DNA from: an uncultured Candidatus Saccharibacteria bacterium
GTDB lineage: Bacteria > Patescibacteriota > JAQUNI01
Length of the DNA stretch: 64,000 nucleotides
Direction: 5' to 3'
Assembly: GCA_964555185.1 (NCBI GenBank)
Contig: CAZKRD010000001.1
Location: forward strand, 34,185 to 98,184
In this document: positions 2,597 through 63,081 of the stretch, piece by piece
Position numbering within the stretch: position 1 is the stretch's first letter
Layout of the letters: every line of letters begins with the position of its first letter
Notes under the pieces: generated by a model
What the model was told of the DNA's origin: nothing
Database searches by the model: none
What the model saw: the letters and a program-made list of their open reading frames with translations, nothing else
Position numbers and translations under genes: made by a program

Positions 2597-5083
2597 TTAT
2601 TTTTCCAGTTTCATTGAGAGTAGTTTTGAGACCCCGTCTTTACCCATCGTAACGCCGTACAAGACTCGGGCCTGTTTCATTGTTTCCCGGTTATGGGTGA
2701 TTGCGATTAGTTGGATTTTTCGGGAGAGTTGTTTCAAAATTCTGGCAAAGCGGACAGAGTTGGCTTCATCCAGGGCGGCATCCACTTCGTCTAAGATGCA
2801 GAAAGGAGGCTGGCTTTGTTTTAAGATACTGAAAATTAAAGCAAGGCCGACCAGTGATTTTTCGCCGCCGGAGAGCATAGAGAGATTTTTCAGTCTCTTG
2901 CCGGGCGGCGAGGCGCTGATCACAATGCCTTCTTCTTGGTTTTGCGCCAGAGAGGCGCGGCCGCCAGCAAAAAGCAGGCGGAAGTATTTTTTAAAGGAGA
3001 AGTTGATTTGTTGAAAAGACTGATTAAGGCGGAAAGAGATTGTTTTGTTTAATTTTTTGATCAGTTTGTTTAGGGCCAGCGAAGCTTTTTCCAGATCTTG
3101 GGCCTGTTGGTTTAGGAAATCAAATCTTTTTTGAGTCTTTTCGTATTCTTTGATTGTCTCCGGGTCGATTGATCCGATCAGTTCTAATTCCCGCTTGAGA
3201 CGATTTATTTTTTGTTCACATTTGCCCTCCTGCTCCGGCACTTTGATTCTGTCCAAATCTATTTTGTTCCAAGCGAGGCCTAAAGTCTTTCTTGCTTCGG
3301 ATTCCAGGTTCTGTTTTTGGAAAAGGATTTGAGCGCTTTCAATGTTTAGGCCTTCCAAGGTTTTTTTCTCGACAGCAAGCTCGTCCTCTCTTTTTCTTAA
3401 ATTTCTTTCCAAGCCAAAGACCTTTTCCTTGCTCTGTTCTTGGACTTTTAAAGAATCTTCGATTTGCTTTGTGATTATTCGGCTTTGTCTCTCTAGTTTT
3501 TCCAGTCGCGCCTTTAGGGCTTTTAGCTCAAGGTTTATTTCCTCCACTTCCTTTTTTTGATCCGGGGCTTTGATTTTGCTTTTTTTCGCCAGGAACTCAA
3601 TCTTATTTTCAAAGATTCTTTTTTGGTATGCTAGAAAAGCGGCTTTTTCGCCTTGGATTTGTTTTTCCGCCTGGAGCTTGCTTATTTCAAGCTCCAGATT
3701 CTCTTTCTCGTTGGCTAGATTTTTTAGTTTGAGCAAGATTCTCTTGCCCGAGGGGGAGTCGCTTGGCGCTTTCAGTCTTTCAATTAAACCTTTTAGCTCA
3801 TCATAGATGTTCTGAAGTTTGGTTTTTAGTTTTGCCGCGTCTATCCCGCGCTCAAAGGTTTTCAGAATGGTTTGGTGTTTTGCGAGCAGTTTGTTTAGGT
3901 CGGCTTCTATTGTTTGATCCTCGGGTTTTTGGTGTCTTTTCTGTAAGTCTTCTTTTTGTTCATTTATTTTTAAAAGTTCTTTTTGTCGATTTTTGAGTTT
4001 TTGGGCAAGACGGGTTTTGTTTTTTTCGATTGTCTTTATTTCCTGGTTTAACTTTTGGATTTCTGCTTCCAGCTCCCTGCTTTGAGCAAAAATCTGCTCG
4101 CGCGGTTTAAAATTTTGATTGAGGGCTTCGAGCCGGCCTTCTAGGATAGCGATGTTTTTCTGGATTTCATTTTCCTTCCCGTTGAACTCATTTTTTTTAA
4201 GATAGAGATTTTGCCAGATCTCCTGTGCTTTTTTGCGGCTTCTTTCTTGTTTTTGGAGCAGGGCTTTGAGATTGGAGATTTTGTTTTCCAGGGAGATTGC
4301 TTTTTCTTCCTTGACCCTTTTTCCGCTTTGGACTTTTTGCTGTTTCTTCGCTACGGAATCAATTTTTTGGCTGTACCAGGTTTTTTGGAAGGCTTTTAAT
4401 TTTTTTTCTGTTTTTTCTCGGGCGGCGGCGCGCAAAGCCTGCCTTTTCAATCGTTTTAAGTGCGGCTCGATCTCGGAAGTTAAACCCAAAACCTGGACTA
4501 TGTTTTCTTCTGTGGCTTTAAGCTTATTTTCTGCTTCCCGTTTTTTTAATTCCAGGTGCTTGGCGCCAGAGGCCTCCAAAAAGAGCTCTCTTTTCTCTTG
4601 CGGGCCCAAATCTACGATTTTATCAATCATCCCCTGGCCAATCACGCTGTATGTCTTTTGGCCGGCGCCTGTTTGGGTCAAGAATTGTTCAATGTCTTTT
4701 AAACGGACAGAGGCGCGGTTTAAGAAAAATTCTCCTTCGCCATTGCGGTAGAACCTTCTTTTCAAGGTGATTTCGGGGAAATCCAGGATCCTGTTTTTGG
4801 GAGCCTTCTTGCTTTTGGCTGAAATTCTATCAAGATGCAAAGCAACCTCGGCGCGGCCTAAGCTTTTCTTGGACTGAGAACCGGCAAAGATCACGTCTTC
4901 ACCTTTCTTGCTGCGGAGGGATTTTTTAGACTGTTCCCCTAAAACCCAGCGGATCGCGTCAGCGATATTTGACTTGCCCGAACCATTCGGGCCGACAATC
5001 GCTGTGATCCCTCTGTCAAATTCAAGCACCGTGCGGGAAGCAAAGGATTTAAAGCCGGTTAGAGTTAGTTTCTTGAAAGTCAT
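2597..5083 (-). CDS. smc: Chromosome segregation ATPase SMC, short form (828 aa) with no recognisable hinge.
   Basis: N-terminal Walker A (GPNGSGKSNIADAIRWVLGEQ). C-terminal ABC signature and Walker B (LSGGEKSLVGLALIFSIL...ILDEVDAALD). Long coiled-coil middle. It sits next to rnc, as smc does in Bacillus. Confidence 0.8.
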   Translation of the reverse strand: MTFKKLTLTGFKSFASRTVLEFDRGITAIVGPNGSGKSNIADAIRWVLGEQSKKSLRSKKGEDVIFAGSQSKKSLGRAEVALHLDRISAKSKKAPKNRILDFPEITLKRRFYRNGEGEFFLNRASVRLKDIEQFLTQTGAGQKTYSVIGQGMIDKIVDLGPQEKRELFLEASGAKHLELKKREAENKLKATEENIVQVLGLTSEIEPHLKRLKRQALRAAAREKTEKKLKAFQKTWYSQKIDSVAKKQQKVQSGKRVKEEKAISLENKISNLKALLQKQERSRKKAQEIWQNLYLKKNEFNGKENEIQKNIAILEGRLEALNQNFKPREQIFAQSRELEAEIQKLNQEIKTIEKNKTRLAQKLKNRQKELLKINEQKEDLQKRHQKPEDQTIEADLNKLLAKHQTILKTFERGIDAAKLKTKLQNIYDELKGLIERLKAPSDSPSGKRILLKLKNLANEKENLELEISKLQAEKQIQGEKAAFLAYQKRIFENKIEFLAKKSKIKAPDQKKEVEEINLELKALKARLEKLERQSRIITKQIEDSLKVQEQSKEKVFGLERNLRKREDELAVEKKTLEGLNIESAQILFQKQNLESEARKTLGLAWNKIDLDRIKVPEQEGKCEQKINRLKRELELIGSIDPETIKEYEKTQKRFDFLNQQAQDLEKASLALNKLIKKLNKTISFRLNQSFQQINFSFKKYFRLLFAGGRASLAQNQEEGIVISASPPGKRLKNLSMLSGGEKSLVGLALIFSILKQSQPPFCILDEVDAALDEANSVRFARILKQLSRKIQLIAITHNRETMKQARVLYGVTMGKDGVSKLLSMKLEK

Positions 5084-6245: not shown

Positions 6246-6929
6246 TTATTTGTATTGATCAAGGGCCGCCTCGGCTGCTGCTACCTGGGCTGTCTGTTTG
6301 GAGCTGCCTGTTCCTTTAGCAATCAGTTTTTTCTCAAGATAGACGCCGACAATAAAATGCTTGTTATGGTCAGGTCCGCTTTCTTTTAAGACCTGGTATT
6401 CGGGAGTAACCCCTTCTCGTTCCTGGGTTAATTCTTGAAAGTGGGATTTAGGGTCGATATATAGTTTTTCTTTGAGGATCCGAGGCAGTTTGACTAGGAT
6501 ATTTTTTTCAATGAATTTTTGGGCAACCTTGTATCCCTGGTCTAGATAAATCGCGCCAATTAAGGCCTCGAAGGCGTTGCCCAAGATGTATTCCCGCGCC
6601 TTGCCTGTGTCTTTCTTCTCCCCGCGGGAGAGATAGAGGAATCCATCCATCTCTAGGCTTTTGGCCATTTTAGCAAGCATTTTACTGTTGACTAGGCTGG
6701 AGCGCCAGTTTGTCATTTCGCCCTCCGGGTTGTCATAGTGGTGGTAGAGGTAGGCGGTAACCACAAGCTCTAAAACCGCGTCGCCTAAGAATTCCAGTCT
6801 TTCATTGTGGCCTAACTCAAAGTTATGGTTTTCGTTGATATAGGAGCGATGGACCAGGGCCTGTTTTAAGAGTTTCTGGTCCTTGAATGTAAGGCCCAAG
6901 GTTCGTTCAAGTTTAGAGAAGTCTTTCAT
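6246..6929 (-). CDS. rnc: Ribonuclease III.
   Basis: MKDFSKLERTLGLTFKDQKLLKQALVHRSY...ERLEFLGDAVLELVV carries the RNase III signature, and a dsRBD follows at the C-terminus. The ORF-track start at 6977 is a TTG; ATG at 6929 is preferred. Confidence 0.9.
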   Translation of the reverse strand: MKDFSKLERTLGLTFKDQKLLKQALVHRSYINENHNFELGHNERLEFLGDAVLELVVTAYLYHHYDNPEGEMTNWRSSLVNSKMLAKMAKSLEMDGFLYLSRGEKKDTGKAREYILGNAFEALIGAIYLDQGYKVAQKFIEKNILVKLPRILKEKLYIDPKSHFQELTQEREGVTPEYQVLKESGPDHNKHFIVGVYLEKKLIAKGTGSSKQTAQVAAAEAALDQYK

Positions 6930-8077: not shown

Positions 8078-9601
8078 ATGAACAATATAATAATTTCGTC
8101 TTTCGCGGCAATAATTTTTGGTTTTGTTGGCGGTTATTTTTTACGAAGATTTTTAGCTCAAAAAAAACAAGATTCTGTCGAGGCTAAGGCCAAAGCTTTA
8201 TTAGAGGAAGCCAAGACCCAGGCCCGGGAGCTAACTTTGGGCGCCAAAGACAAGGCCTTAAAATACACAGAGGAGGCCAAGCGTGAAGAGACACAGCGAC
8301 GAAAGGAGCTTGTCGCCTCAGAACACAGGTTAGCGAGAAGAGAGCAGTTTTTAGATCAAAGATTAAATGACCTAGAGAAGAAACAAAGGTATCTTGGCAG
8401 AGAGCAAAGTCAAGTAAAAGAGGTAAAGCGCGAGGTGCTTGAAATTAAAAAGAAACAGCTTAGAACCCTAGAGCGGGTGGCCAATCTTTCTCTTGCCGAG
8501 GCAAAGAAGGTTCTTTTGGAGATGACTGAAGATGATATGAAAGAACGTTTGATCAAGAGAATCAGGAAGCTGGAGCAGACAGAACAGGAAGAGGTAGATA
8601 GGAAAGCAAAGGGAATTTTGTCTCTTGCGATTCAGAGGTGCGCTTCTTCCCATGCCTCTGAATCCACGGCCACTACCCTGTCTTTACCGTCGGATGAGAT
8701 GAAAGGTCGGATCATTGGGCGGGAGGGCCGCAACATCAATGCGATTGAGAAGCTGACTGGTGTTGAAATCGTGGTTGATGACACGCCGGAGACAATTGTT
8801 ATTTCCGGTTTCTCGCCGATCCGGCGGCAGGTGGCGAAAAAGGCCCTAGAGAGACTGATTGTTGACGGCCGGATTCATCCAGCCAGGATTGAGGAGGCGA
8901 TTTCGGAAGCGAAAAAGGAGATTGCGCGGGATATGAAAGAGGCAGGCGATAACGCTTGTTATGACACCGGGGTTGCCGGCTTGCCTCCTAAATTAATCCA
9001 GCTTTTAGGGAGACTGAAATACCGGACCAGCTATGGCCAGAATGTTCTTCAGCACTCAATTGAGGTTTCTCATCTCTCAAGACTGTTGGCGGAAGAGCTA
9101 GGCGCTGATTCAGCGCTTGCCAAGAAAGCGGGTCTTTTGCATGATATCGGCAAGGCAGTGGATCATGAAATCAAAGGCACCCATATTGAGATCGGCAAAA
9201 GTATTTTAAACAAATTCGGTGTTCCCGAAGAGATTATCAAAGGGATGCAGTCTCATCATGAGGACACGCCCCATTCTTCTTTGGAATCCTTACTTGTGAC
9301 GACAGCGGACGCAATCTCTGGGGCGCGGGTCGGGGCGCGTAAAGACACTTACGAAGATTATTTGAATCGTTTGGAGGATTTAGAGGCGATTGCTAACAAC
9401 TTCCCCGGGGTAGAGAAGACCTATGCGATTCAGGCGGGTCGGGAGATAAGGGTCTTTGTTACGCCAGAAGAAATTGACGATCTAGCCTCGGCAAAGCTTT
9501 CCCGCAAGATTGCGGACAAAATTGAGGAGGAGCTGAAATACCCAGGTGAAATCAAGGTTTCTGTCGTGCGCGAAACCAGGGCTGTAGAGTTTGCGAGATA
9601 A
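8078..9601 (+). CDS. rny: Ribonuclease Y.
   Basis: N-terminal TM helix, coiled coil, KH domain (GRIIGREGRNINAIEKLTGVEIVVDD) and HD domain (LLHDIGKAVDHE...HHED). 507 aa is typical. Confidence 0.9.
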   Translation: MNNIIISSFAAIIFGFVGGYFLRRFLAQKKQDSVEAKAKALLEEAKTQARELTLGAKDKALKYTEEAKREETQRRKELVASEHRLARREQFLDQRLNDLEKKQRYLGREQSQVKEVKREVLEIKKKQLRTLERVANLSLAEAKKVLLEMTEDDMKERLIKRIRKLEQTEQEEVDRKAKGILSLAIQRCASSHASESTATTLSLPSDEMKGRIIGREGRNINAIEKLTGVEIVVDDTPETIVISGFSPIRRQVAKKALERLIVDGRIHPARIEEAISEAKKEIARDMKEAGDNACYDTGVAGLPPKLIQLLGRLKYRTSYGQNVLQHSIEVSHLSRLLAEELGADSALAKKAGLLHDIGKAVDHEIKGTHIEIGKSILNKFGVPEEIIKGMQSHHEDTPHSSLESLLVTTADAISGARVGARKDTYEDYLNRLEDLEAIANNFPGVEKTYAIQAGREIRVFVTPEEIDDLASAKLSRKIADKIEEELKYPGEIKVSVVRETRAVEFAR

Positions 9602-9735
9602 GTTCAAAGTTCAGAATTGAGTTTAAAGTTAAAAGTTGATTAGAGAGTGTTGTTGAGTGTAAAGCGCTGGGGGCTTGTAACTTTAGACTTTGAATTATAA
9701 TTTTTAACTTTGCACTTTGAATTTTTAACTATATC

Positions 9736-13129: not shown

Positions 13130-13262
13130 CATATATAGAAATAAGTTGTCATTGCCCGTAGGGGTAGGTCTTGCTTGCCTTGCCCCGCTTAGCCTGCGAG
13201 GCGGACGGTAGGCAGATGTCTACCCTGCCCGGGCGACCACGCGGGGTCGCCCCTACATTTAG
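13130..13262. repeat. Family C: GC-rich hairpin element (cccgtagggg ... ggggtcgcccctac), copy 1.
   Basis: Shares termini with the copies at 17011-17160 and 53247-53340. Much higher GC than its surroundings. Confidence 0.6.
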
Positions 13263-13264
13263 TT

Positions 13265-14477: not shown

Positions 14478-15317
14478 CTATTTTTTGGTAGGCTTTTTAG
14501 ACTTTTCTTTTTTTTTGGGCTTTAAAGCTTTTTTGATTTTTCCAATGATTTCCTCGGTGGTGAAATTAGCTTTGACCAAATAATCCTGGGCGCCTAAAGC
14601 TTCTCCTTTTTGAATATCGGTTTCTTGTCCGAGATTGGTTAAGAGGATGACCGGGATCCTGGCGATCTGTTTTGAAGCGCGCATTTGCTTCAAGACCTCA
14701 AACCCGTCGATTCCGGGCAGAATGATATCAAGGAGGATTAAAGCCGGCTTTTCTTTTTCAATTTTCCGTAATCCCTCTTGCCCGTCAATCGCGGTGGTTA
14801 CGTCAAAACCCTCTTTCCGCAATTTAGTAACACAGAGGTCTCTTAAGATTTCATCATCCTCGATTAAGAGAATCTTGGTGCCACCACTGTTTTTGGTAGG
14901 CTTTGTTTCCCCTTTTTTGGTATCTGGGCCGATGTCATTTAAGTGCGCTTCTATTTTGAGAATAATGTCTTCAGGGGTTAGATCAGATTTAACCATATAG
15001 TCTCGCGCTCCCAGGGAATATATTTTTTCTTCATTGGGTTCGGAGCTGGAAATGACAATCACTGGTATTTTGGAGATGGTTGGATCATTTTGGATCTCCT
15101 CTAGGACCTCGTAACCATTTTTTTCCGGAATCACGATATCCAAAAGGACCAGGTCTGGTTTGGTTGCTCTGATTTTGCGCAGGCCCTCTTTGCCGTCATG
15201 GGCACTGATTGTTTTGTAGCCTTCTTTGGTTAATTTTTTCCCCATCAGCACCAGGAGATCTTTTTCATCTTCAATAATCATAATTTTAGTTTTTTTGGAG
15301 GTATTGTTTTGAGCCAT
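14478..15317 (-). CDS. Response regulator with two tandem receiver (REC) domains and no output domain.
   Basis: Two CheY-like modules: IMIIEDEKDLL...DLVLLDIVIPEKNG...VIVISS and ILLIEDDEILRDL...ALILLDIILPGIDG...VILLTN. K-rich tail. Confidence 0.8.
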   Translation of the reverse strand: MAQNNTSKKTKIMIIEDEKDLLVLMGKKLTKEGYKTISAHDGKEGLRKIRATKPDLVLLDIVIPEKNGYEVLEEIQNDPTISKIPVIVISSSEPNEEKIYSLGARDYMVKSDLTPEDIILKIEAHLNDIGPDTKKGETKPTKNSGGTKILLIEDDEILRDLCVTKLRKEGFDVTTAIDGQEGLRKIEKEKPALILLDIILPGIDGFEVLKQMRASKQIARIPVILLTNLGQETDIQKGEALGAQDYLVKANFTTEEIIGKIKKALKPKKKEKSKKPTKK

Positions 15318-16801: not shown

Positions 16802-16896
16802 TTATTTTAATCTGCGCTGGAAAGTTAAGAGATTGCATCCAATTGATTGAATTATAGCATATTTTTTGGTTACAACAAATTTGTGGTATAATTAGA

Positions 16897-17160
16897 AGTG
16901 AGGAGAAAGTGAAATTCCTTTTCACTTTATCCGAGCAAGAATTTCAAGCTTGCTTATAATTAGAAGTGAGGAGAAAGTGAAATTCCTTTTCACTTTATCC
17001 GGGATTATTGCAATGGCCCGTAGGGGCGGACCCATGCTCGCCTCGCTGGCGAAGCGGGTGTCCGCCCGTTGTTGGTAAACCAAGAGTAGGGCGACCACTC
17101 ACCTACGCCAAGGCTCTGGCGGGCGGGCACGGGGTCGCCCCTACGAATTGTTACATCCAA
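16897..17160. repeat. Composite family-C repeat: two 47-bp direct repeats (tataattagaagtgaggagaaagtgaaattccttttcactttatccg) followed by a GC-rich hairpin element with CGTAGGGGCG inverted termini.
   Basis: Direct repeats at 16897-16943 and 16965-17011, separated by the palindrome agcaagaatttcaagcttgct. GC-rich body at 17023-17150 ends in ggggtcgcccctacg. Related copies at 13130-13262 and 53190-53345. Confidence 0.7.
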
Positions 17161-17193
17161 GAGCGACCGTTATTATTTAAACCTTAACTCTTT

Positions 17194-18805: not shown

Positions 18806-20530
18806 ATGTTCAAAGACAGTGAACTAAAAAAAATCCTTTTAAGGGATAAGGTGGTAAGACCGGATAAGATTCGCAAGGCCGAACAGCAGGCCAAGAAGGA
18901 TAAAATCAACTTGGCTTCGGAATTGGTTAAGCAAGGCGCGGTTTCAGAGCAGGAATTGGTGGAGGTTTTCTCTGAAAATTCGAAGATCCCTTACGTCAGT
19001 CTAAAGAACAAGAGGATCCCTCGCGATGTCCTGCTTTTGATTCCAGAGCCGATCGCCCGCAACCATCAGGTGATTGCTTTTGAAAAAGAACGTAATAAGT
19101 TAAAACTGGCGATGGTTGATCCGAGTGACCTTCAGACTATTGAGTTCATTAAAAAGAAAACGGGTTTTCAGATTGAAGCTTCCCTGGTGACCGCTTCCGA
19201 TGTGGCGGAGGTTTTGAAGCAGTATCGCAAGAGCTTAAAGACAGAATTTTCCGAGATCGTTGAGGAGGTGCCGAAAGCGAAGGGAGAGGAGGAATTAAGA
19301 GAGATGGCGCAGAGACTGCCCGTGGTCAAGATCGTGGATACGTTTTTAGAGTATGCGATTTACGAAAACGCTTCGGATATTCACATCGAACCGTTGGAGA
19401 AAGAGATTATCGTCCGTTATCGGGTGGACGGCATATTGCGGGATGTGATGAATCTGCCCAAGAAAGTGCTGTCCGGGGTGGTAGCGCGGATTAAGGTGCT
19501 TTCTGATCTTAGGATTGATGAGCATCGTCTTCCTCAAGACGGACGTTTTAAGATCGAGACTGATGAATACAAAATTTCCTTTCGGGTATCTGTGATCCCT
19601 GTTTTTGACGGCGAGAAGATAGTGATGCGTTTGCTGTCAGAATCCACGAAACCTTTGAATTTAGAGGAATTGGGCTTACGCAAAAACGCGCTTAAAGTGG
19701 TTCAATTAAACATCAAGAGGCCGCACGGGATGATCCTTGCTACCGGCCCTACCGGTTCGGGTAAGACCACCACCCTTTACAGCATCTTGAATATTCTAAA
19801 TACGGTCAAGGTCAATATTTGTACGATTGAGGATCCGATCGAATATCACCTGTCTCGGATTAATCAGAGCCAAGTAAAACCCAAGATCGGCTATGCTTTT
19901 GCCAATGGTTTGCGGGCGCTCTTGCGCCAGGACCCGGATATTATTATGGTTGGCGAGATTCGCGACCGCGAGACCGCCGAGATGGCTGTTCATTCCGCGC
20001 TTACCGGTCACCTGGTTCTCTCTACTCTGCATACCAACAACGCAGCCGGAGCGATTCCGCGCCTGATTGATATGCACATCGAGCCGTTTTTGGCCGCTTC
20101 AACCCTGAATGTCCTGATCGCCCAGAGACTGGTCCGCCGGATTTGTGCTAATTGTATTGAAAGTTATCACCTGGATAAGAAAATGTGGAAGAATGTGGGC
20201 GGGCAGGTCAATCTCAAAAAACTTTTAGCGATTTTAGCCAAAGAAGGAGTGATTGTTTCTTCTAAGGCCAGGCCCGGTTCTTTGTTGTTTTACCGGGGCC
20301 GTGGTTGTTCGCAATGCAATGACACCGGTTATAAGGGTCGGATTGCCACCCTTGAGGTTTTAGAGGTGAGCGAGGAGATTCAAAAACTGACCGTGCAGAA
20401 GGCGCCGACAGAAGTGATTGAAAGACAGGCGATTGCCGAAGGGATGGTAACGATGCTGGAAGACGGTTTTTACAAAGCTAAGATGGGCATCACTACGATT
20501 GAAGAGGTTTTAAGGGTAACCCAGGAATAA
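18806..20530 (+). CDS. pilB: Type IV pilus assembly ATPase PilB (GspE family).
   Basis: T2SSE_N domain. Walker A GPTGSGKTTTLYSIL, Asp box, His box. C-terminal tetracysteine CANC...CSQCNDTGYKGR. Confidence 0.9.
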   Translation: MFKDSELKKILLRDKVVRPDKIRKAEQQAKKDKINLASELVKQGAVSEQELVEVFSENSKIPYVSLKNKRIPRDVLLLIPEPIARNHQVIAFEKERNKLKLAMVDPSDLQTIEFIKKKTGFQIEASLVTASDVAEVLKQYRKSLKTEFSEIVEEVPKAKGEEELREMAQRLPVVKIVDTFLEYAIYENASDIHIEPLEKEIIVRYRVDGILRDVMNLPKKVLSGVVARIKVLSDLRIDEHRLPQDGRFKIETDEYKISFRVSVIPVFDGEKIVMRLLSESTKPLNLEELGLRKNALKVVQLNIKRPHGMILATGPTGSGKTTTLYSILNILNTVKVNICTIEDPIEYHLSRINQSQVKPKIGYAFANGLRALLRQDPDIIMVGEIRDRETAEMAVHSALTGHLVLSTLHTNNAAGAIPRLIDMHIEPFLAASTLNVLIAQRLVRRICANCIESYHLDKKMWKNVGGQVNLKKLLAILAKEGVIVSSKARPGSLLFYRGRGCSQCNDTGYKGRIATLEVLEVSEEIQKLTVQKAPTEVIERQAIAEGMVTMLEDGFYKAKMGITTIEEVLRVTQE

Positions 20531-20621
20531 GTTAAAAGTTAAAAGTGCAAAGTTGAGTTCAAAGTTCAAAGTTTTAGATTTTTAATTTTGAACTTTGAAC
20601 TTTGAATTTTGAACTAGAAAC
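20531..20621. repeat. Family B dyad spacer (caaagtt words): gttcaaagttcaaagtt...aactttgaactttgaa between pilB and pilC.
   Basis: Imperfect long inverted repeat built from tandem caaagtt-type words. Related spacers at 9600-9735, 29155-29262, 40764-40879 and 49795-49842. Confidence 0.6.
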
Positions 20622-23486: not shown

Positions 23487-24704
23487 ATGAACAAGGGTTT
23501 TGCCTTAATATCAGTGATTTTAATCCTAGGAGTACTTTTACTCATCGGTACCGCCTTTTTCACTTTGGTCAGTTTTGAGAATAAGATTTCTTTAAGCCAG
23601 GAATCTACTTTCGGCACCTATTACCTCGCCGAAGCTGGTATCAATGAAGTTATTTACAAATTACGAAATGATTCAGTCTGGCAGGATGAATTTGAAGACG
23701 GTACGATTGACCGCGGCTTCACCAGAACAGATGATTTGGTCGAGAGCGGGTCTTATCAAGTCAGGATAGTTTCTACAGACCCTGGCGAGGCGGACATAGT
23801 ATCAATTGGCAGATTAGACCTTCACGGCTCGATTGCCCAGAGAGTGGTTAAAACCAAGGTGATTAAAGCGGTTAACCCCAATCCCCTAGCTGATATGACT
23901 ACCTACACGGATGAGGATACCAATATCAATTTAAGTTTTGTCACAGTGGAGACCGGTAGTATATTTGCTAACGATGATTTAAATTTGTTTGCCTGGAGCA
24001 GAGCGGATATTTTAAACGGCCAAGCAATGGCGGCTGATCAGATTAATCTCCGCGGCACCTCTACTTTAAATGCTTCTGGCGGCTGCTTCGCGACTAATTG
24101 TCCGTCCGATTGTTCTTCTTGCAATCCCGCTCCGGACCATGTTGCTATGCCAATGCTTGATTTTGATTCGGATGACGAGAATTCCTATAAAAGCAAAGCA
24201 GGAGCGGTTTACACCGAGGCCGAATTTAAGGATCTTTTGGATAATAATAATCCTCTGGTTTTAGATCGCGATGTTACTTATGTCGAGGGCGATGTCAGGA
24301 TTAAGCGGGGGCACTCTCTGATCTTGAGCGGGATTTTGGTGGCGGATGGCAACATCACTTTTGGCGAATGGGCCGGAAGCAGTCATATTGAAATTAATCA
24401 CACACCAGGCAAGGGTTCGGGTTTAATTTCCAAAAACTCCATTGAGTTTATGATGCAGCCCTGGGCTGATGACATTAATATTGAGGGAGTGCTCTATGCG
24501 ATGGATCGGGTCCGGATCAGAGACATAGCCTTTATCGGCAATTTTTCTTTAACCGGCGCGATTGTGGCGCGGGAGCTTACTTTTTTTGATCTTTGGGGCA
24601 ACAGCACTCTTAATTATGATGATGATACCCTAGTCAAAACCCTTTTTGGCCCGCCGGCTGACGCGCCCGTGGTCACAATTGAACATTGGGAGGAAGAATA
24701 CTAG
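23487..24704 (+). CDS. PilX-like minor pilin / pilus tip-associated protein (PilX_N-type N-terminus).
   Basis: MNKGFALISVILILGVLLLIGTAFFTLVSFENKISLSQES matches the PilX N-terminal pattern. Large variable C-terminal domain. Confidence 0.5.
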   Translation: MNKGFALISVILILGVLLLIGTAFFTLVSFENKISLSQESTFGTYYLAEAGINEVIYKLRNDSVWQDEFEDGTIDRGFTRTDDLVESGSYQVRIVSTDPGEADIVSIGRLDLHGSIAQRVVKTKVIKAVNPNPLADMTTYTDEDTNINLSFVTVETGSIFANDDLNLFAWSRADILNGQAMAADQINLRGTSTLNASGGCFATNCPSDCSSCNPAPDHVAMPMLDFDSDDENSYKSKAGAVYTEAEFKDLLDNNNPLVLDRDVTYVEGDVRIKRGHSLILSGILVADGNITFGEWAGSSHIEINHTPGKGSGLISKNSIEFMMQPWADDINIEGVLYAMDRVRIRDIAFIGNFSLTGAIVARELTFFDLWGNSTLNYDDDTLVKTLFGPPADAPVVTIEHWEEEY

Positions 24705-24853
24705 GTTAATTTTCAATTTTCAAGTACCAATGTACTAATCAATTTTCAATTTTCAAGTATCAATTTTCAATAACCAATGACTAAATGTTCAAACTGTTTG
24801 AAAATTAAATCTATTCGAACCTTCGGATTTGATTGAAAATTGAGATTTGAAAA
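24705..24853. repeat. Family A intergenic repeat (caattttcaa... aatgttcaaactgtttgaaaattaaatctattcgaa...), copy 1.
   Basis: Near-identical to 29395-29530 and 44407-44550, and in inverted orientation to 42171-42310. Contains the palindrome TTCAAAC-T-GTTTGAA. Confidence 0.75.
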
Positions 24854-25912
24854 TTGAAAATTATATTTATGCGTGCTTTCGGTCTGGATTTATCAGACGC
24901 CAGTTTAAAATTAATTGAATTGAAGAAAGAAGGACAAAACATTGAATTGGCCAATTTTTGTGACTTGCCGCTTGCCGAAGGGGTGATTGTCAAAGGGAGG
25001 ATCGTGAAAGAAGATTTGTTAGCAACCTCGATTAAGGAAGTTTTAAAAAAAGCGCAAAAAGGAAAAGTTAAGAACCGGTTTGTTGTCTCTTGCGTACCTG
25101 AATCTGAATCATTTGTCCGGATTATTAGTCTCCCCAACCTGCCCGAGGAGGAGCTTCCCCAGGGCGTGCGCTGGGAATTTGAACAGCATATCCCTCTTTC
25201 CTTGAACCAGGTTTATTTAGATTGGCAGAAAATTGAATCAGAAGAGGAGGAAACCAAGGTTTTAGTTATCGCTTCGCCTAAGAAGCTGATTGATGCTTAT
25301 ACCAGCGCCCTGAAAAGAGGCGGCTTGATCCCCTGGGCTGTCGAGGCGGAATCAGCCGCCACTGCCCGCAGTTTAATCAAGGAGGGAGATCCGGCTTGTT
25401 TTTTGCTGGTGGATATTGGTTTTAGCCGGACCGGCCTAATTATTTATGATCATGAGACACTGCAGTTTACTTCTGCGGTTGAACCCTTTGGCCAGTCTTT
25501 TACCGATAAATTAACCGAAGATTTAAAAGTGGGCCTGAAAGAGGCAGAGAGCCTCAAGAGAACCTATGGTTTAAGCAGCAGGAAGAAGGGGCCTTCGGAG
25601 AAGGTTCACAAATCCCTCTTGCCCCTGGTTCAATTTTTGGCCAAAGAAATTAGAATCGCGCTCAAGTTTTACTCGGAGCATTTTCCCAGAGGTCAAGCGG
25701 TCAAAAAGATTGTCTTATCCGGCGGCGGATCTAAACTGAAAGGCCTAGTACCTGAACTGAAAGCGATCCTGAAAGCGGACGTTACTTTGGGCAACCCTTG
25801 GGTTAATATTCTGGATCCAGACCATAGATATCTGCCCGAGATCAGCCGTAAGGACTCCTTAAGCTACGCGACAGCGATCGGCTTGGCCTTGCGGGGTGTG
25901 GAAGGAGTGTAA
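24854..25912 (+). CDS. pilM: Type IV pilus assembly protein PilM (actin-like ATPase).
   Basis: FGLDLSDASLKLIELKKEG...VDIGFSRTGLIIY...LSGGGSKLKGL. Alternative start at M6 (24869). Confidence 0.8.
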   Translation: MKIIFMRAFGLDLSDASLKLIELKKEGQNIELANFCDLPLAEGVIVKGRIVKEDLLATSIKEVLKKAQKGKVKNRFVVSCVPESESFVRIISLPNLPEEELPQGVRWEFEQHIPLSLNQVYLDWQKIESEEEETKVLVIASPKKLIDAYTSALKRGGLIPWAVEAESAATARSLIKEGDPACFLLVDIGFSRTGLIIYDHETLQFTSAVEPFGQSFTDKLTEDLKVGLKEAESLKRTYGLSSRKKGPSEKVHKSLLPLVQFLAKEIRIALKFYSEHFPRGQAVKKIVLSGGGSKLKGLVPELKAILKADVTLGNPWVNILDPDHRYLPEISRKDSLSYATAIGLALRGVEGV

Positions 25913-29152: not shown

Positions 29153-29264
29153 AAAATAATTAAAAGTTTAAAGTGCCTGCCTTGCCGGTAGGCAGGCAAA
29201 GTTCAAAATTTTTAACTTTAAATTCAACCTTTAACTTTGAATTTTGCACTTTAAACTAAATTAG

Positions 29265-29339: not shown

Positions 29340-29640
29340 TTTTCAATTTTTAATGGTTCGACTATACTCACCACCTTGAGCTTGCCGAAGGGTTTACTAA
29401 TCAATTTTCAATTTTCAAGTACCAATTTTCAATCAATTTTCAATAACCAATGACTAAATGTTCAAACTGTTTGAAAATTAAATCTATTTGAAAATTGGGA
29501 TTTGATTGAACATTGGTCCTTGTAAATTGGTAATTCAAACAATATTTTCAAGTACCAATGGTTCGACTATGCTTACCACCCTGCTTACCATCCTGAGCTT
29601 GCCGAAGGGTTTTTAAACAATTTCCAATGTTTTAATGTTT
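29340..29640. repeat. Family A repeat, largest copy: a full A unit (29395-29530) flanked by two ggttcgactat...gagcttgccgaagggttt sub-units (29353-29395 and 29562-29615).
   Basis: Direct sequence identity with 24705-24853 and 44407-44555, and with 42171-42367 in reverse. Confidence 0.75.
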
Positions 29641-40763: not shown

Positions 40764-40879
40764 ATAGTTCAAAGTTAAAAGTGCAAAATTCAAAGTTGAA
40801 TTCAAAGTTCAAAGTTAAGTTTTTTTAATGATTTGGGTCTTAGATTGCAACTTTTAACTTTGCACTTTGAACTTTTAAC
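40764..40879. repeat. Family B dyad spacer between nrnA and clpP (gttcaaagttaaaagtgcaaa ... tttgcactttgaacttttaac).
   Basis: Near-perfect inverted arms of about 21 nt flanking a 60-nt core. Confidence 0.6.
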
Positions 40880-41830
40880 TTATTTTTGGATCACCCACTT
40901 CCCTTTTTTACGCGCTAGGCGCCCTTTGATCGTAAAGCCGGAAGCTAGTGGGTGTCCCCCGCCTCCGTAGCGGGCAGCGATTTTAGCGACATCGACTCCC
41001 CGCCCTTTTTCCGAACGCAAACTTGCTTTGATCTTGTTTTTTTCTTGTTCCGAGAGCAGCATGGCGTATTTAGTGCCTTCAGCGGTATTGATGATGCTGA
41101 CCACGCCGTCCAGGTCCTCTGGTTTGGCCCCGAGTTCTTCAAAATCCTTTTGGGTAATAGCAGACAGAGTGACGCCCTTTTTCTTATCTTGGAGGGTGCG
41201 GGTAAGCGCTCGCCCCCAGATTTTTAAGGCGGGCAGGGATTTATTCTGATAGGTTTGCTGGGCGATTTTGTTCAAGTTTGCTCCTTGCTTCATTAGATCA
41301 GCGGCTACTTCCAGGGTCTGGGGCAGGGTGTTGGCGTGTTGAAAACTGCCTGTGTCCGTAAAAATTCCAGTCAGAAGGCAGTTGGCAATCTTGTGGTCCT
41401 GGATATTTAGTTTTTGAATCAGAAAATAGAGTATTTCGGCCGTAGAAGAAGTTTTGGTTTCAACCAGATTCAGATTACCAAAGGGCTTTTTTTGGGGATG
41501 ATGGTCGATATTGATCAGGGCCCTGTATTGAAGGTGGGACCATTTCAAGCCAATCCTTTTTTTATCCCCGGCATCCAAGGCGATAATAATATCAAATTTT
41601 TTCCCGGGAAGCTCATTCACGATTTTATCAGAAGCAGGCAAGAAAGAGAGATTTTTGGGGACAGGATCAGGAGAAAAACAGACGACCCTCTTCTTCATCT
41701 TTTTTAAAGCCAGAGCCAAAGCGAGCATTGATCCCACGCCGTCGCCGTCAGGATTTTCATGAATAGCAAGCAGAAAAGAGGAAAATTTCTTCAATATTTT
41801 CAAGACAAGGTTAAGGTCTTTTTTTGACAT
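40880..41830 (-). CDS. nrnA: DHH-family phosphoesterase NrnA (nanoRNase / pAp phosphatase).
   Basis: HENPDGDGVGS...INIDHHPQ are DHH motifs, followed by a DHHA1 C-terminal region with GGGH. Confidence 0.8.
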   Translation of the reverse strand: MSKKDLNLVLKILKKFSSFLLAIHENPDGDGVGSMLALALALKKMKKRVVCFSPDPVPKNLSFLPASDKIVNELPGKKFDIIIALDAGDKKRIGLKWSHLQYRALINIDHHPQKKPFGNLNLVETKTSSTAEILYFLIQKLNIQDHKIANCLLTGIFTDTGSFQHANTLPQTLEVAADLMKQGANLNKIAQQTYQNKSLPALKIWGRALTRTLQDKKKGVTLSAITQKDFEELGAKPEDLDGVVSIINTAEGTKYAMLLSEQEKNKIKASLRSEKGRGVDVAKIAARYGGGGHPLASGFTIKGRLARKKGKWVIQK

Positions 41831-42170
41831 TTTGATCTAAGAGTTTATTGATCCTTTCTGCTTTTTCTTGAGAAGTGTCAACACTAAAGTGAAGTTTGGG
41901 GATCTTTCTTAAATGGAGGCGGGAACTAAGGAGGGATTGTAGCTTAATCTTATTTCTTTGTAAAGTTTTCACAATTAAGCTTCTTTTATCTTCAGGTAGA
42001 ACCGAAATCCAAATGCGAGCTTGGGACAGATCTCGAGAAGTGACAACTCGAATTATGGTCGTAAGAGTATTAGGCGGCAGATCGATTTCTGTCAAAATCG
42101 CATTTGCCAGTTCCTTTTTAATCAGGCTGTTAAGTTTTGCAATACGGTAGGACATGGGGTTAATTTTCAA
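41811..42170 (-). CDS. rbfA: Ribosome-binding factor A.
   Basis: RIAKLNSLIKKELANAILTEI...TIIRVVTSRDLSQARIWISVL. Downstream of infB, as in the canonical operon. Confidence 0.8.
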   Translation of the reverse strand: MKINPMSYRIAKLNSLIKKELANAILTEIDLPPNTLTTIIRVVTSRDLSQARIWISVLPEDKRSLIVKTLQRNKIKLQSLLSSRLHLRKIPKLHFSVDTSQEKAERINKLLDQNVKKRP

Positions 42171-42367
42171 TTTTCAAATCTCAATTTTCAATCAAATCCG
42201 AAGGTTCAATGATTTAATTTTCAAACAGTTTGAACATTTCATCATTGGTTATTGGAAATTGATTAGTAAATTGGTACTTGAAAATTGAAAATTGATTGTA
42301 AACCCTTCGGCAAGGTCCAAGCGGTGAGCATAGTCGAACCATTGAAAATCGTCAATTGAAAATTTCC
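42171..42367. repeat. Family A repeat, inverted copy, with an adjacent ggttcgactatgctcaccgcttgg...gccgaagggttt sub-unit.
   Basis: Reverse complement matches 29395-29615. Confidence 0.7.
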
Positions 42368-44406: not shown

Positions 44407-44555
44407 GGGAGGGGGTTAATTTTCAATTTTCAAGTACCAATTTTCAATCAATTTTCAATAACCAATGACTAAATGTTCAAACTGTTTGAAAATTAAATCT
44501 ATTCGAAAATTGGGATTTGATTGTAAATTGAAAATTGTAAATTGAAAAATTTTCT
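44407..44555. repeat. Family A repeat, copy 4.
   Basis: Identical core to 24705-24853. Confidence 0.75.
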
Positions 44556-47446: not shown

Positions 47447-48332
47447 TCTTTGAGTGATAATTAGAGTGTCACTCAAACCCTAAAAACAAAAAAGAAAAAA
47501 ACAAAAAGACACGGACGAGTAATGGAAGATAAAACAAAAAGAAAAACAAAAATTATAAAAAACAATTTGCATTTATCCTATTAGGTGTTTGACTTAATAG
47601 GAGGAAGGGCCCTTCCAAGGTTTCGTTTTATGACTGGGCATTTTAGGGGCTAATGGTCGGAAGTTTTTTGTTTATCCAGAATATTTTTTGATTTTAAATA
47701 ATTTAGCCAGTAATCGTAATTTTCCTGTTTCAGGTTCAACCTGAACTGTCACCCCTTGGAATAACCACCCCTTGGAATAATTGAGTCCCCTCTTCTTCAT
47801 TTAAATAATTAAACGTTCTGGGTAAATCATTTTTTGGTTTCAGTTGGTCTTTATTAATCTTGATGTTTTCAAGTTGATCAGGGAATATATTTTTTATTTT
47901 TAAGCCTCCTATAAAATTAAAAATAAAGACACTCCTGATTGGTTAATGCAAATCTCGTTCGGTTTGCAACTCGCCTCAAATTTTGGGTCAATTTCGAGTT
48001 GTCGTGAAATTTGAAAACTGTTTCAGTATTTTTGTGAGGAGATTTTATTTTTTTACTTGTTTGTCGCGAGAAGAAAAAGAATTCTTAAATCCACTATTTT
48101 TATTTACTCGCCGCTCACTGTTAAGACCATGGGTCTTGCCGTGTGATCCCACCGTGAATTCGGAAATACCCTCTGTCCGGTAGGCAGGCTTTGATCGTCC
48201 CTCGACAAGCTCTGGACTCGCTCGTAATGACATTTTGTGAGTTTCCAGATTCACGGATTCCACTTTTGACAATTCATTTGTTTTTTGTTTTTATTTTCAA
48301 GAACCCCTTTAGAACAATTGAGGTAATGGATG

Positions 48333-49757: not shown

Positions 49758-49845
49758 GCCAGCAATTTACAAGCAATGGAGTTTTATAATATACTGAATA
49801 CAAACAAACTTTAAACTTTGCACTTTGAATTTTGAACTGAATCCC

Positions 49846-49919: not shown

Positions 49920-50071
49920 CAAGGTACATAATCTAGATTTTTTATTTGGGTTTTGATATAATAATTACAAAACAAAAAGCCAAATCTGAATCAGGAGGGA
50001 TTTGGCTTTGTTTGGTCCTTTTCAAACTTACTTATCTAATCCTGTAACTGGCAACACAAGGAGGAATGGTT

Positions 50072-53115: not shown

Positions 53116-53189
53116 ATATCGCCACAGAGCATTTTAGACACACATAGGCACCAATTTATCTTTGAACGGTGCCTTTTTTATAATTCGCA

Positions 53190-53345
53190 GTGAGCCTGCC
53201 TGCCGGTAGGCAGGGTAGGCAGGGAGAAAGTGAAATTCCTTTTCACTTTATTCGGGATTATTGTCATTACCCGTAGGGGCAACCCTTGTGGTTGCCCGTC
53301 TGTGGCATTTGTTTAGCCGACAATGGGCAACCACAAGGGTTGCCC
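53190..53345. repeat. Family C element, copy 3: cctgcc/ggcagg hairpin, agaaagtgaaattccttttcacttt hairpin, then a 25-bp perfect inverted repeat (gtaggggcaacccttgtggttgccc) around a 27-nt loop.
   Basis: The perfect inverted repeat is visible directly at 53268-53344. Confidence 0.7.
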
Positions 53346-53494
53346 CTACAAAACCGTCCCAGACTAGGTGATATTATTGGCGCATTTAAATCAATGACAA
53401 CCTGTAGTTACATCCAAAATTAAGAATTTCGAGCTTGCTTGATTTGTCTGAATTTTGCTATATTTAAAGAATGAGAATAAGATACTAGAAACAA

Positions 53495-62270: not shown

Positions 62271-62400
62271 TAGTCTTGTAACCTATAACGTATAACCTAT
62301 AACCTATAACATAATAACCTATAACCTGTAACTTGTAACCCAAGAATGATATTCTTTGTTTTTCAAAAAACTTGCGTTACAGGTTACAAGTTACACGCTA
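62271..62400. repeat. Family B dyad spacer of the taacctat type, with the nested palindrome aagaatGATattctt, upstream of trmD.
   Basis: About 8 tandem taacctat-like words, then an inverted arm gttacaggttacaagttac. Confidence 0.6.
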
Positions 62401-62406
62401 CAAGAT

Positions 62407-63081
62407 ATGACTTTTGACATTTTGACAATTTTTCCTAAGATATTTAACTCATATTTTAATGAGGGTATTTTAGGTCGAGCAAGAAAAAAAGGCTTAATTA
62501 AAATGAATATTCATAATCTTCGTGATTTTACTCGTGACAAGCATAAGACCACAGACGATCTGCCTTATGGCGGCGGTCCGGGCATGGTGATGAAAGTGGA
62601 GCCAATCTTCCGGGCGCTAAAGGCGATCATTCCAGAGAGGATCGGTCCTCGCGGTTTAAAGGGCGGCCGCAGGGTAAAGTCTAAAATCATCCTTCTTTCT
62701 GCCCGGGGCAAAACCTTTGATCAAAAAAAAGCGCGAGAATTATCACGGATTGATAGGTTGGTTTTAATTTGCGGCAGATACGAAGGCGTGGACCAGAGAG
62801 TAGGGGATTTTTTAGTTGATAACGAGCTGTCAATCGGCAGCTTTGTTTTAAGCGGGGGAGAGCTGCCCGCGATGCTTATCGTGGACACTGTGTCTCGATT
62901 GGTCCCCGGCGTTTTAGGGAACAAAGAATCTTTAGGCGAAGAATCTTTTTCTGTTGGCTTTAATAAAGAATATCCGCATTATACTAGGCCGCGTGAATTC
63001 CATGGTTTTAAGGTGCCTAAAGTTCTTTTTTCCGGCGATCACGAGAAGATAAAGAAGTGGCGCAAAAAACATCAGAAATAA
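62407..63081 (+). CDS. trmD: tRNA (guanine37-N1)-methyltransferase.
   Basis: MTFDILTIFPKIF...LPYGGGPGMVMK...ICGRYEGVDQR...SIGSFVLSGGE. Confidence 0.9.
   Translation: MTFDILTIFPKIFNSYFNEGILGRARKKGLIKMNIHNLRDFTRDKHKTTDDLPYGGGPGMVMKVEPIFRALKAIIPERIGPRGLKGGRRVKSKIILLSARGKTFDQKKARELSRIDRLVLICGRYEGVDQRVGDFLVDNELSIGSFVLSGGELPAMLIVDTVSRLVPGVLGNKESLGEESFSVGFNKEYPHYTRPREFHGFKVPKVLFSGDHEKIKKWRKKHQK

Follow-up and report, generated by a model that had tools for sequence, protein, structure and literature searches.

A dispersed AT-rich hairpin repeat with a -10 box in a Patescibacteria genome keeps its stem but not its reading frame

Introduction

What is the role of a short AT-rich hairpin that recurs letter for letter in the intergenic DNA of a reduced bacterial genome, each time behind a TATAAT box and together with the beginning of a tiny open reading frame (ORF)? 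The hairpin in question lies twice in tandem upstream of gpmI and once upstream of rnhB in a stretch of 64,000 nucleotides from an uncultured Candidatus Saccharibacteria bacterium (contig CAZKRD010000001.1 of assembly GCA_964555185.1, positions 34,185 to 98,184), here called the window. The window is a portion of a 707-kb scaffold belonging to a Patescibacteria metagenome-assembled genome, and the homologues of its GpmI protein all come from Patescibacteria or Parcubacteria. An initial annotation had left three readings of the module side by side: a leader peptide or attenuator, a toxin-like small hydrophobic peptide, or a conserved RNA or DNA stem. It also proposed to separate them by comparing copies. 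This comparison, run across the copies of the genome and a sister species, finds the stem kept and the start codon and frame lost. The hairpin is part of a 68-70-nt unit which is a real, hitherto undescribed, lineage-restricted repeat of a familiar general kind, and which is very probably non-coding and selected for its structure.

A dispersed repeat unit

The 28-mer GAGAAAGTGAAATTCCTTTTCACTTTAT matches exactly at three places in the window, all on the + strand (16903-16930, 16971-16998 and 53224-53251), against 0.00 matches expected in shuffled sequence. Its core, AAAGTGAAA-TTCCT-TTTCACTTT (16906-16928, 16974-16996 and 53227-53249), forms a perfect 9-bp stem closed by a 5-nt loop. In RNA folding, a flanking GGA pairs with TCC and the hairpin grows to 12 pairs (-13.1 kcal/mol); for the whole 151-nt tandem region, the folding z score is -3.5. 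About three perfect 9-bp hairpins are expected by chance per 64 kb, and it is the exact repetition rather than a lone hairpin that carries significance. The repeated module with a TATAAT upstream is thus present as initially described, except that the first TATAAT (16887-16892) falls just outside the range then given. Similarly, the reported 47-bp duplication does correspond to identical segments of 47 nt (16887-16933 and 16955-17001), but the period is 68 nt, the 21-nt linker AGCAAGAATTTCAAGCTTGCT between the segments being a conserved portion of the unit. Tandem Repeats Finder did not call the duplication at 16887-17001.

Unit 1 is complete (16887-16954, + strand, 68 nt; E = 1.5e-23 with an nhmmer profile of the unit, and seen in the unit alignment). 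Its hairpin, H1 (16902-16932, + strand), consists of the core and the extended stem GGA..TCC and, as folded, holds both a GGAG and a GTG at 16909. It is followed by a "Q box", GAGCAAGAATTTCAAGCTTGCTT (16933-16955, + strand), which is conserved in every unit and possibly forms a second small hairpin, AGCAAG/CTTGCT; in two units of the alignment, a G-to-A change in this box is matched by a C-to-T change. Unit 2 (16955-17001, + strand; E = 1.4e-12 over profile positions 1-47), with its GTG at 16977, is ended after TCCG by a GC-rich element.

The third unit starts immediately 3' of the purC terminator with a TATAAT (53179-53184) and TCGCAGTGA, which together make up its 5' edge (53179-53193, + strand); TATAATTCGCAGTGA of this edge also precedes an uninterrupted unit at another locus of the genome (L052, see below). 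The module that had been noted before a GC-rich element at 53221 is indeed an exact copy of the hairpin (H1 copy 3, 53223-53254, + strand, with its GTG at 53230, recovered both as an exact repeat and by nhmmer), but a 29-nt GC-rich insert parts it from its TATAAT. On the other side, the Q box has been pushed downstream by a second GC-rich insertion to 53422-53440 (+ strand; 1 mismatch, 0.07 expected; a collinear weak nhmmer match). Because the Q box recurs there, this copy is best described as a complete unit broken by two GC-rich inserts. The profile search with nhmmer yielded no additional copy within the window.

Further loci came from a degenerate pattern scan of metagenome contigs, which returned 29 matches. 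The module is present in four of the matching contigs, all of them in assembly SDBT01 (L051, L052, L060 and L070); the other matches are due to chance. Since the khpA-trmD spacer of SDBT01 is identical to that of the window, the four contigs represent more loci of the same genome. With all copies aligned, the consensus reads TATAATT, 6-10 variable nt, GA, GGAGAAAGTGAAATTCCTTTTCACTTT, (A/T)TCCGA(G/A) and CAAGAATTTCAAGCTTG(C/T)T over 68-70 nt; within it, GGAG, AAAGTGAAA-TTCCT-TTTCACTTT, (A/T)TCC and GA(G/A) are followed by CAAGAATTTCAAGCTTGCT. The 3' end is formed either by the next unit's TATAAT or by a terminal TAT(A/T)(A/T)T.

At least six intergenic regions contain the unit, either alone or in 2-3 copies arranged head to tail, and across six loci with unrelated flanks the units are 90-97 % identical. 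Two units separate the divergent hisKA from gpmI, and one, interrupted as described, lies between the purC terminator and rnhB. Single units are also found between an ftsW-like gene and a small ORF, then L25 (L051), and between a ydjC-like gene and a convergent gene whose stop codon is inside the unit (L052). Two units plus a degenerate one stand between a pnp-like gene and the gene for a 551-aa protein (L060), and two plus a variant between the divergent dnaA and rpmH (L070). Tandem copies would arise through local duplication. In assemblies of the same organism from short reads of other samples, contigs terminate precisely at the hairpin module, as expected of a multi-copy repeat. At the L070 locus, a perfect DnaA box (TTATCCACA, ~1600-1610, or ~1455-1465 in the minus-strand view) adjoins the units in the dnaA-rpmH spacer, which therefore lies in the probable replication origin region.

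Stem and reading frame in a sister species

The sole other species compared is a sister species (contigs L046 and L047), in which the orthologous region upstream of gpmI is available. Its GpmI is 91 % identical to that of the window and the gene 89 % identical at the nucleotide level, with 74 % identity at 4-fold sites. The site in L046 likewise contains two tandem units, here free of the GC-rich element. In the hairpin, 6 of 25 positions differ between the two species. In L046 unit a, these changes leave a perfect 10-bp stem, the register of which has moved by one base (GTGAAA/TTTCAC to TGGAAA/TTTCCA; -11.3 against -8.5 kcal/mol). An equally good fold is reached by only 0.06-0.07 % of random mutants that carry six substitutions. 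Eleven nucleotides covering the loop and the neighbouring stem bases, GAAATTCCTTT, are identical. Within the genome under study, G-U pairs lengthen the stem on the + strand in L052, in L060b and in the 53k copy.

The proposed start codon has had a different fate. The GTG is TGG in both L046 copies, and an in-frame TAG stands two codons upstream. The sole start codon there is an ATG 5 nt after the GGAG, which opens another frame with an unrelated peptide. Selection or homogenisation is shown to target the stem-loop and the loop sequence, not the ORF. The conserved-stem alternative of the initial annotation is borne out by the compensating changes, while the peptide and attenuator readings are refuted, because L046 keeps the stem yet loses the GTG and the frame. 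Searches with identical proteins (RnhB, PurE, KhpA and HU) for the rnhB locus of the sister species yielded either the same organism or different regions, and nothing else.

The candidate reading frame

The translations given earlier are correct, although they start at GTG codons at 16909, 16977 and 53230 and not at 16965 or 53228. Two candidate ORFs had been singled out: one of 33 codons (VKFLFTLSGIIAMARRGG..., 16977-17078, + strand) and a second, obtained by translation, of 28 codons (VKFLFTLFGIIVITRRGN..., 53230-53316, + strand). Both are judged incidental; the first is not conserved in L046 and differs in length between copies. Within this genome, the flank sets the length to 16, 19, 28, 31 or 33 codons, or places the stop later. 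The frame does read into the GC-rich element, as had been noticed, but this element is an independent insertion into the unit. As for the ribosome-binding site, the GGAG of the proposed Shine-Dalgarno (SD) sequence is present, but only 3 nt and not 6 nt before the GTG.

A translated micro-ORF starting at this GTG, be it a leader peptide, a toxin-like peptide or an upstream ORF, is very improbable. It could invoke the closeness of GGAG to a start codon in both species, the CCUCC that the 16S rRNA retains, and the identical 16-residue peptide VKFLFTLSEQEFQ(A/S/T)CL that six units would encode. However, neither start nor frame survives in the sister species, the C-terminus as well as the length depends on the flanks, and a 12-13-bp stem encloses both the SD sequence and the start codon. 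SD sequences are moreover rare in this genome, an SD-like motif being found upstream of only 5 of 50 genes in the window, and substitutions among the units comprise 3 non-synonymous versus 2 synonymous changes. Translations in any frame had no relative among 5.8 billion protein sequences, and scans of all ORFs over the elements gave no match in Pfam or NCBIfam. Large protein searches returned no candidate for a frameshift-corrected translation and, for a concatenated six-frame translation of the unit, 20 word-sharing candidates of which none scored. The 53k ORF retrieved only three repetitive proteins from a representative library of 1.8 billion, and tblastn of plasmids with the element translation gave nothing meaningful. 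A false candidate for a small-protein or toxin gene is thereby removed. Concerning translation in this organism more generally, three of the five genes with an SD-like motif are adjacent pur genes starting at 50066, 51574 and 52090, and the 3' end of the 16S rRNA reads GGATCACCTCCTT (L089, ~15178-15195).

The attenuator half of the proposal fares no better. On the + strand between 16700 and 17300 no terminator-like site follows the hairpin, the fold consists of two independent hairpins only, and the genes downstream of units (gpmI, rnhB, rpmH and others) are not of a type controlled by attenuation. The hairpin was likewise rejected as an intrinsic terminator: only 2 of the 9 stem pairs are G-C, a T tract is absent, and the real terminators upstream of units (53146-53178, and that in L052) look different.

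GC-rich elements inserted in the unit

The DNA into which the candidate frame runs belongs to a family that stands out from the 43 % G+C of the genome. The copy next to unit 2 (17002-17159, + strand; arms 17019-17042 and 17122-17145) is a GC-rich, GTAG-tagged palindromic element resembling REP/REPIN sequences. The copy in the third unit (53255-53421, + strand) has perfect 25-bp arms (53273-53297 and 53325-53349). Together with a further copy at 13148-13263, they have common ends (..TTGTCATTnCCCGTAGGGG ... CCCCTAC..GTTACATCC) around unrelated interiors; the elements at 13148, 17002 and 53255 begin and finish with CCCGTAGGGGC...GCCCCTAC, and their arms measure 24-25 nt. A fourth copy lies just beyond the window, 5' of the 16S promoter (L089, 12215-12285). 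A GTAG tag, GC-rich inverted arms and several copies per genome are the properties of REP/REPIN sequences, and these features are consistent with REPs and REP dimers of the GTAG super-family (PMC3733652). REPs have a GTAG or CGTC tag at one end of a GC-rich palindrome of 20-40 bp; the hairpin of the unit is AT-rich and untagged. The GC-rich element is an entity separate from the hairpin and has been inserted into the unit, since it is missing from the orthologous site in L046 and since the 53k unit resumes with its Q box. Both large elements that adjoin units start one base past the 3' foot of the hairpin (TCCG, the last G being followed by GGATT).

A smaller GC-rich hairpin, GCCTGCCTGCCGGTAGGCAGG..., was inserted into the third unit at the 5' foot of H1 (53194-53222, + strand) and also occurs alone at 29174-29198. 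At the same 5'-foot position, L046 has GCCTGCCTGC, which amounts to half a copy. In all, sequences of the type GCCTGCC(T)TGCCGGTAGGCAGGC are present at 29174-29198, 53194-53222 and ~48176-48188, and in L046 at 3836-3845; one occurrence is flanked by two tRNA genes and another marks the 5' foot of the AT-rich hairpin. In L060, the 551-aa gene downstream of the units opens with a GC-rich low-complexity stretch (PASPPASLSSREAGRGRSGRGRPADKP; 6290-6404, minus strand), which looks like an in-frame insertion of a GC-rich palindrome.

The 53k element also encodes 18 residues, LGDIIGAFKSMTTCSYIQN (53364-53420), that resemble a Y1 (tyrosine, HUH-type) transposase. They align with the region after the HUH motif of IS200/RAYT-like transposases; in a gene on a Chloroflexota plasmid, for instance, the counterpart is LIDVVGRIKSITTYRYIQG. 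The pairwise comparison gives E = 1e-5 and a six-frame search of ~350 kb only E = 0.3-7, for which reason this similarity makes the Y1 link of the element suggestive, not established. A search of ~100 kb of this genome, and of ~350 kb of DNA in all, brought up no transposase gene. The idea that the hairpin itself is a decayed Y1-transposase gene, prompted by a frame reading ESEIPFHF like the 'EIPxHF' region, was rejected, as most units have no transposase-like DNA behind them; such an origin is retained, weakly, for the GC-rich element. A scan of a genome collection with GGGATTATTGN6CCCGTAGGGG met one unrelated REP array of Chitinophaga only. On that uncultured Chitinophaga contig (L001, 5700-6500), ~14 CACCCCGT(A/T)AGGGGTG palindromes stand beside an IS200/RAYT-like gene, in what looks like a REP cluster next to its transposase gene.

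A possible promoter and 5' leader

What might a conserved stem behind a -10 box do? We favour, with a probability of roughly 0.35, a mechanism in which each unit would be a portable promoter and leader cassette, combining a -10 box with a 5' stabiliser of mRNA. In every unit of the alignment, a perfect TATAAT stands at the start and the base of the hairpin follows 9-10 nt later, a relation of geometry only. Transcription would start ~7 nt past the TATAAT, and since the hairpin base lies at the distance just given, the stem-loop would come 2-5 nt from this predicted 5' end. The RNA would thus consist of its first 2-5 nt and then at once a 12-13-bp stem-loop burying the GGAG and GTG. Such a 5'-terminal structure would protect the downstream mRNA from decay that depends on the 5' end. 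Terminal stem-loops, sometimes with an untranslated SD-like site, stabilise mRNAs in E. coli and B. subtilis, and both 5' stem-loops and SD-like 5' stabilisers are well documented (Emory 1992; Hambraeus 2002; Agaisse 1996; all cited in PMC3997798). The organism encodes RNase Y, the gene of which is nearby. The cassette is favoured on account of the spacing between TATAAT and hairpin, these known 5' stabilisers, the presence of RNase Y and the agreement of the unit with the definition of mobile promoters discussed in the last section. The conservation of the gpmI promoter, the direction of the units relative to the next gene and the G-U pairs on the + strand also speak for it.

At the gpmI locus, the 5' edge of unit 1 is also the native gpmI promoter, with an extended -10 box (TGgTATAAT, 16884-16892, + strand). 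It is one of few TGnTATAAT sites in the non-coding DNA of the window, and relatives with GpmI identities of 91 %, 80 % and ~65 % have retained AAATTTGTGGTATAAT 5' of gpmI.

A number of observations weigh against the cassette. The start sites of the units are predictions. Both a -35 box and a TGn extension are absent from the internal TATAATs, whereas the 16S promoter of the organism is canonical (TTGACA-17-TAATAT). The unit of L052 is flanked by convergent genes and shares sequence with a stop codon, a position in which a promoter has no evident purpose; and although the unit is directed at the start of the next gene in 6 of 7 loci, the orientation statistics are not significant. The gpmI leader would be ~295 nt long with the GC-rich insert, and a promoter-like site is found nearer to the gene (TTGTTA-17-TATTAT, 17148-17176, + strand), the TATTAT of which is conserved in L046. 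Relatives at 80 % and ~65 % GpmI identity keep the gpmI promoter and have no 5' hairpin, so that the hairpin is dispensable for gpmI expression; the possibility that it is an ancestral leader structure of gpmI was dropped on the same grounds. Finally, L046 unit b retains a 6-bp stem core only, which is equalled by 14-24 % of random mutants and is alone not significant.

Competing explanations

The main rival is that the unit is a selfish or neutral DNA repeat. In this case the hairpin would act as single-stranded DNA recognised or targeted by an enzyme of mobile DNA such as a Y1 transposase, and promoter or RNA effects would be incidental. Taken by itself this is possible but somewhat unlikely, and it is compatible with a promoter-leader function, as the two are not mutually exclusive. 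Units are scattered among unrelated flanks, including the convergent-gene spacer where one overlaps a stop codon, and, since both edges carry TTATAAT, the junction is re-formed with every unit, something that would promote arrays in tandem. Within a genome the copies are near-identical, and the two L046 copies have the species-specific changes in common, as in concerted evolution. The GC-rich palindromes lie exactly at the hairpin feet (53194-53222 on the 5' side, 17002 and 53255 one base past the 3' side), which fits hairpin-guided insertion; the half copy in L046 occupies the same 5' position, REP dimers inside other palindromic repeats have been documented (PMC3733652), and the 53k element carries the Y1-transposase-like fragment. 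On the other hand, terminal inverted repeats or a clear target duplication could not be defined, H1 has neither a GTAG tag nor a GC-rich REP stem, no transposase gene turned up in the DNA searched, and copies are few, with at least 6 loci where hundreds might be expected of such a repeat. The G-U pairs point to the + strand, in numbers too small for a decision. In a combined version, the AT-rich hairpin would be a single-stranded landing pad at both feet of which REP/REPIN-type palindromes, some with Y1-gene fragments, insert, while the unit would also serve as a portable promoter and leader; we regard this as rather unlikely. If true, the unit would be a hot spot for hairpin-guided insertion and would provide evidence for an active REP/RAYT-like system in reduced Patescibacteria genomes.

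Two further explanations, both improbable, keep the hairpin functional but assign it another partner. Each unit could encode a small RNA, a hairpin of ~55-60 nt transcribed from the unit's own promoter, which would be present in tandem copies like other multicopy bacterial small RNAs and would use the pyrimidine loop UUCCU as a seed. This would account for the perfect -10 box ahead of each copy, for the tandem arrangement and for a loop that, with its neighbouring bases, is invariant between species while the stem changes. Nevertheless, no terminator follows, the second hairpin having 6-7 weak pairs and no U tract, no Rfam family matches, few genes have an SD sequence for the loop to target, and the internal -10 boxes lack -35 and TGn elements. 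Less probable still is a double-stranded operator bound by a dimeric regulator of a small regulon (gpmI, rnhB, rpmH and others). The palindrome does lie just downstream of the -10 box, the classical position for a repressor, an identical sequence is found at several promoters, and comparable AT-rich palindromes of phages look like operators. But the half-sites have changed jointly between species (GTGAAA to TGGAAA) and their spacing has gone from 5 to 4 nt, as expected of a folded stem and not of half-sites read by a protein, and the unit in the convergent spacer has no promoter to regulate.

Other repeats and significance

The window contains additional repeats. AT-rich intergenic repeats form two families (AATTTTCAATTTTCAAG-type and AAGTTCAAAGTT-type), are often long imperfect inverted repeats and, for the second family, also occur in SDBT01 contigs; they are located at 24704-24862, 29397-29529, 42156-42305 and 44412-44548, and further at 9593-9731, 20529-20616, 40766-40881 and 49797-49839. 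Short TAACCTATAACC-like repeats in tandem, accompanied by a copy in inverted orientation, occupy 62279-62408 between khpA and trmD; this array is shorter in the sister species (L094). Some 1.5-4 kb past the end of the window (L089, 12537-15190), a group I intron with a LAGLIDADG ORF follows or interrupts the 16S rRNA gene near its 3' end. Scans of viral collections produced one unrelated phage palindrome in one scan and nothing in two others. The palindrome, AAAGTGAAAC-N4-GTTTCACTTT, is shared in a conserved context by more than 30 viral contigs of IMG/VR (L002-L039), is unrelated to the element of the window, and is probably a phage operator or terminator.

Streamlined Patescibacteria genomes of ~0.7 Mb thus still hold small repeat families, here an AT-rich hairpin unit with a -10 box and REP-like GC-rich palindromes that insert beside it. 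If the portable promoter and 5' stabiliser proves true, the unit would be among the first regulatory modules described in this uncultivated phylum. The unit is also of practical interest, as its repeats break metagenome assemblies precisely at the module.

Comparison with known systems

Rfam models, at gathering and at permissive thresholds, detect only tRNAs in the window; the best match in the region, to a microRNA model, scores 21.7 bits where the cut-off is 51. Among repeats, the unit is reminiscent of pneumococcal BOX elements and mycobacterial MIRUs, which are short, dispersed, intergenic non-coding units with a variable tandem number, stem-loop potential and possible effects on neighbouring genes. 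The unit is likewise short, intergenic and dispersed, with variable tandem copies and stem-loop potential, but it has no sequence relationship to either, far fewer copies and a perfect TATAAT in each unit, and, in contrast to MIRU ORFs, its period (68-70 nt) is not divisible by three.

The leader of IS200 tnpA contains a stem-loop that occludes the ribosome-binding site. The unit resembles it in having an SD sequence and start codon within a stem and in adjoining Y1-transposase-like DNA, but no intact transposase ORF follows, and most units have no transposase-like DNA at all. With respect to MITEs, the TTATAAT at both unit edges is a direct repeat and a partial palindrome, and convincing terminal inverted repeats, which together with a target-site duplication define a MITE, were not seen in the copies aligned. 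REP and REPIN sequences owe their mobility to RAYT tyrosine transposases (Nunvar 2010; Bertels and Rainey 2011; Di Nocera 2013, PMC3733652). It is the GC-rich element that is like them, with its GTAG tag, its GC-rich palindromic arms in inverted pairs and its several copies per genome, while the AT-rich hairpin differs in being untagged and low-copy and in having no RAYT gene found nearby.

TIGR arrays, known from the same phylum, are likewise built of tandem short units with palindromic parts. A TIGR unit is ~36 nt long with two variable 9-nt spacers, is present in 5-15 copies and is adjacent to a Tas gene with a Nop domain (Faure et al. 2025, PMC12045711). The present unit was rejected as a TIGR or CRISPR-like array: it is 68-70 nt long, identical within an array, present in 1-3 copies, and has hisKA, gpmI, purC and rnhB as neighbours, with no Tas gene adjoining.

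The class of putative mobile promoters (Matus-Garcia et al. 2012, PMC3488235) is operational, not mechanistic: its members measure 50-100 nt, share an identity of 80 % or more and precede non-homologous genes. With 90-97 % identity at six loci and 1-3 copies per locus, the unit falls within this definition of a mobile promoter or interspersed modular repeat. Like members of the class, it is non-coding, carries a -10 box and has non-homologous genes downstream within one genome (gpmI, rnhB, rpmH and others); it departs from them in its tandem arrangement, in its selected hairpin and in its one occurrence between convergent genes.

The 5' stabilisers known from the references in PMC3997798 include the 5'-terminal stem-loop of ompA, the aprE leader, in which a stem-loop is combined with ribosome binding without translation, and the STAB-SD of cryIIIA. 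The unit differs from these in that its GGAG is paired inside the stem, that it is repeated and dispersed and not confined to one gene, and that its 5' end is only predicted. What it has in common with them is a stem-loop predicted to lie within a few nt of the 5' end and, along with this, an SD-like GGAG behind which no conserved gene stands.

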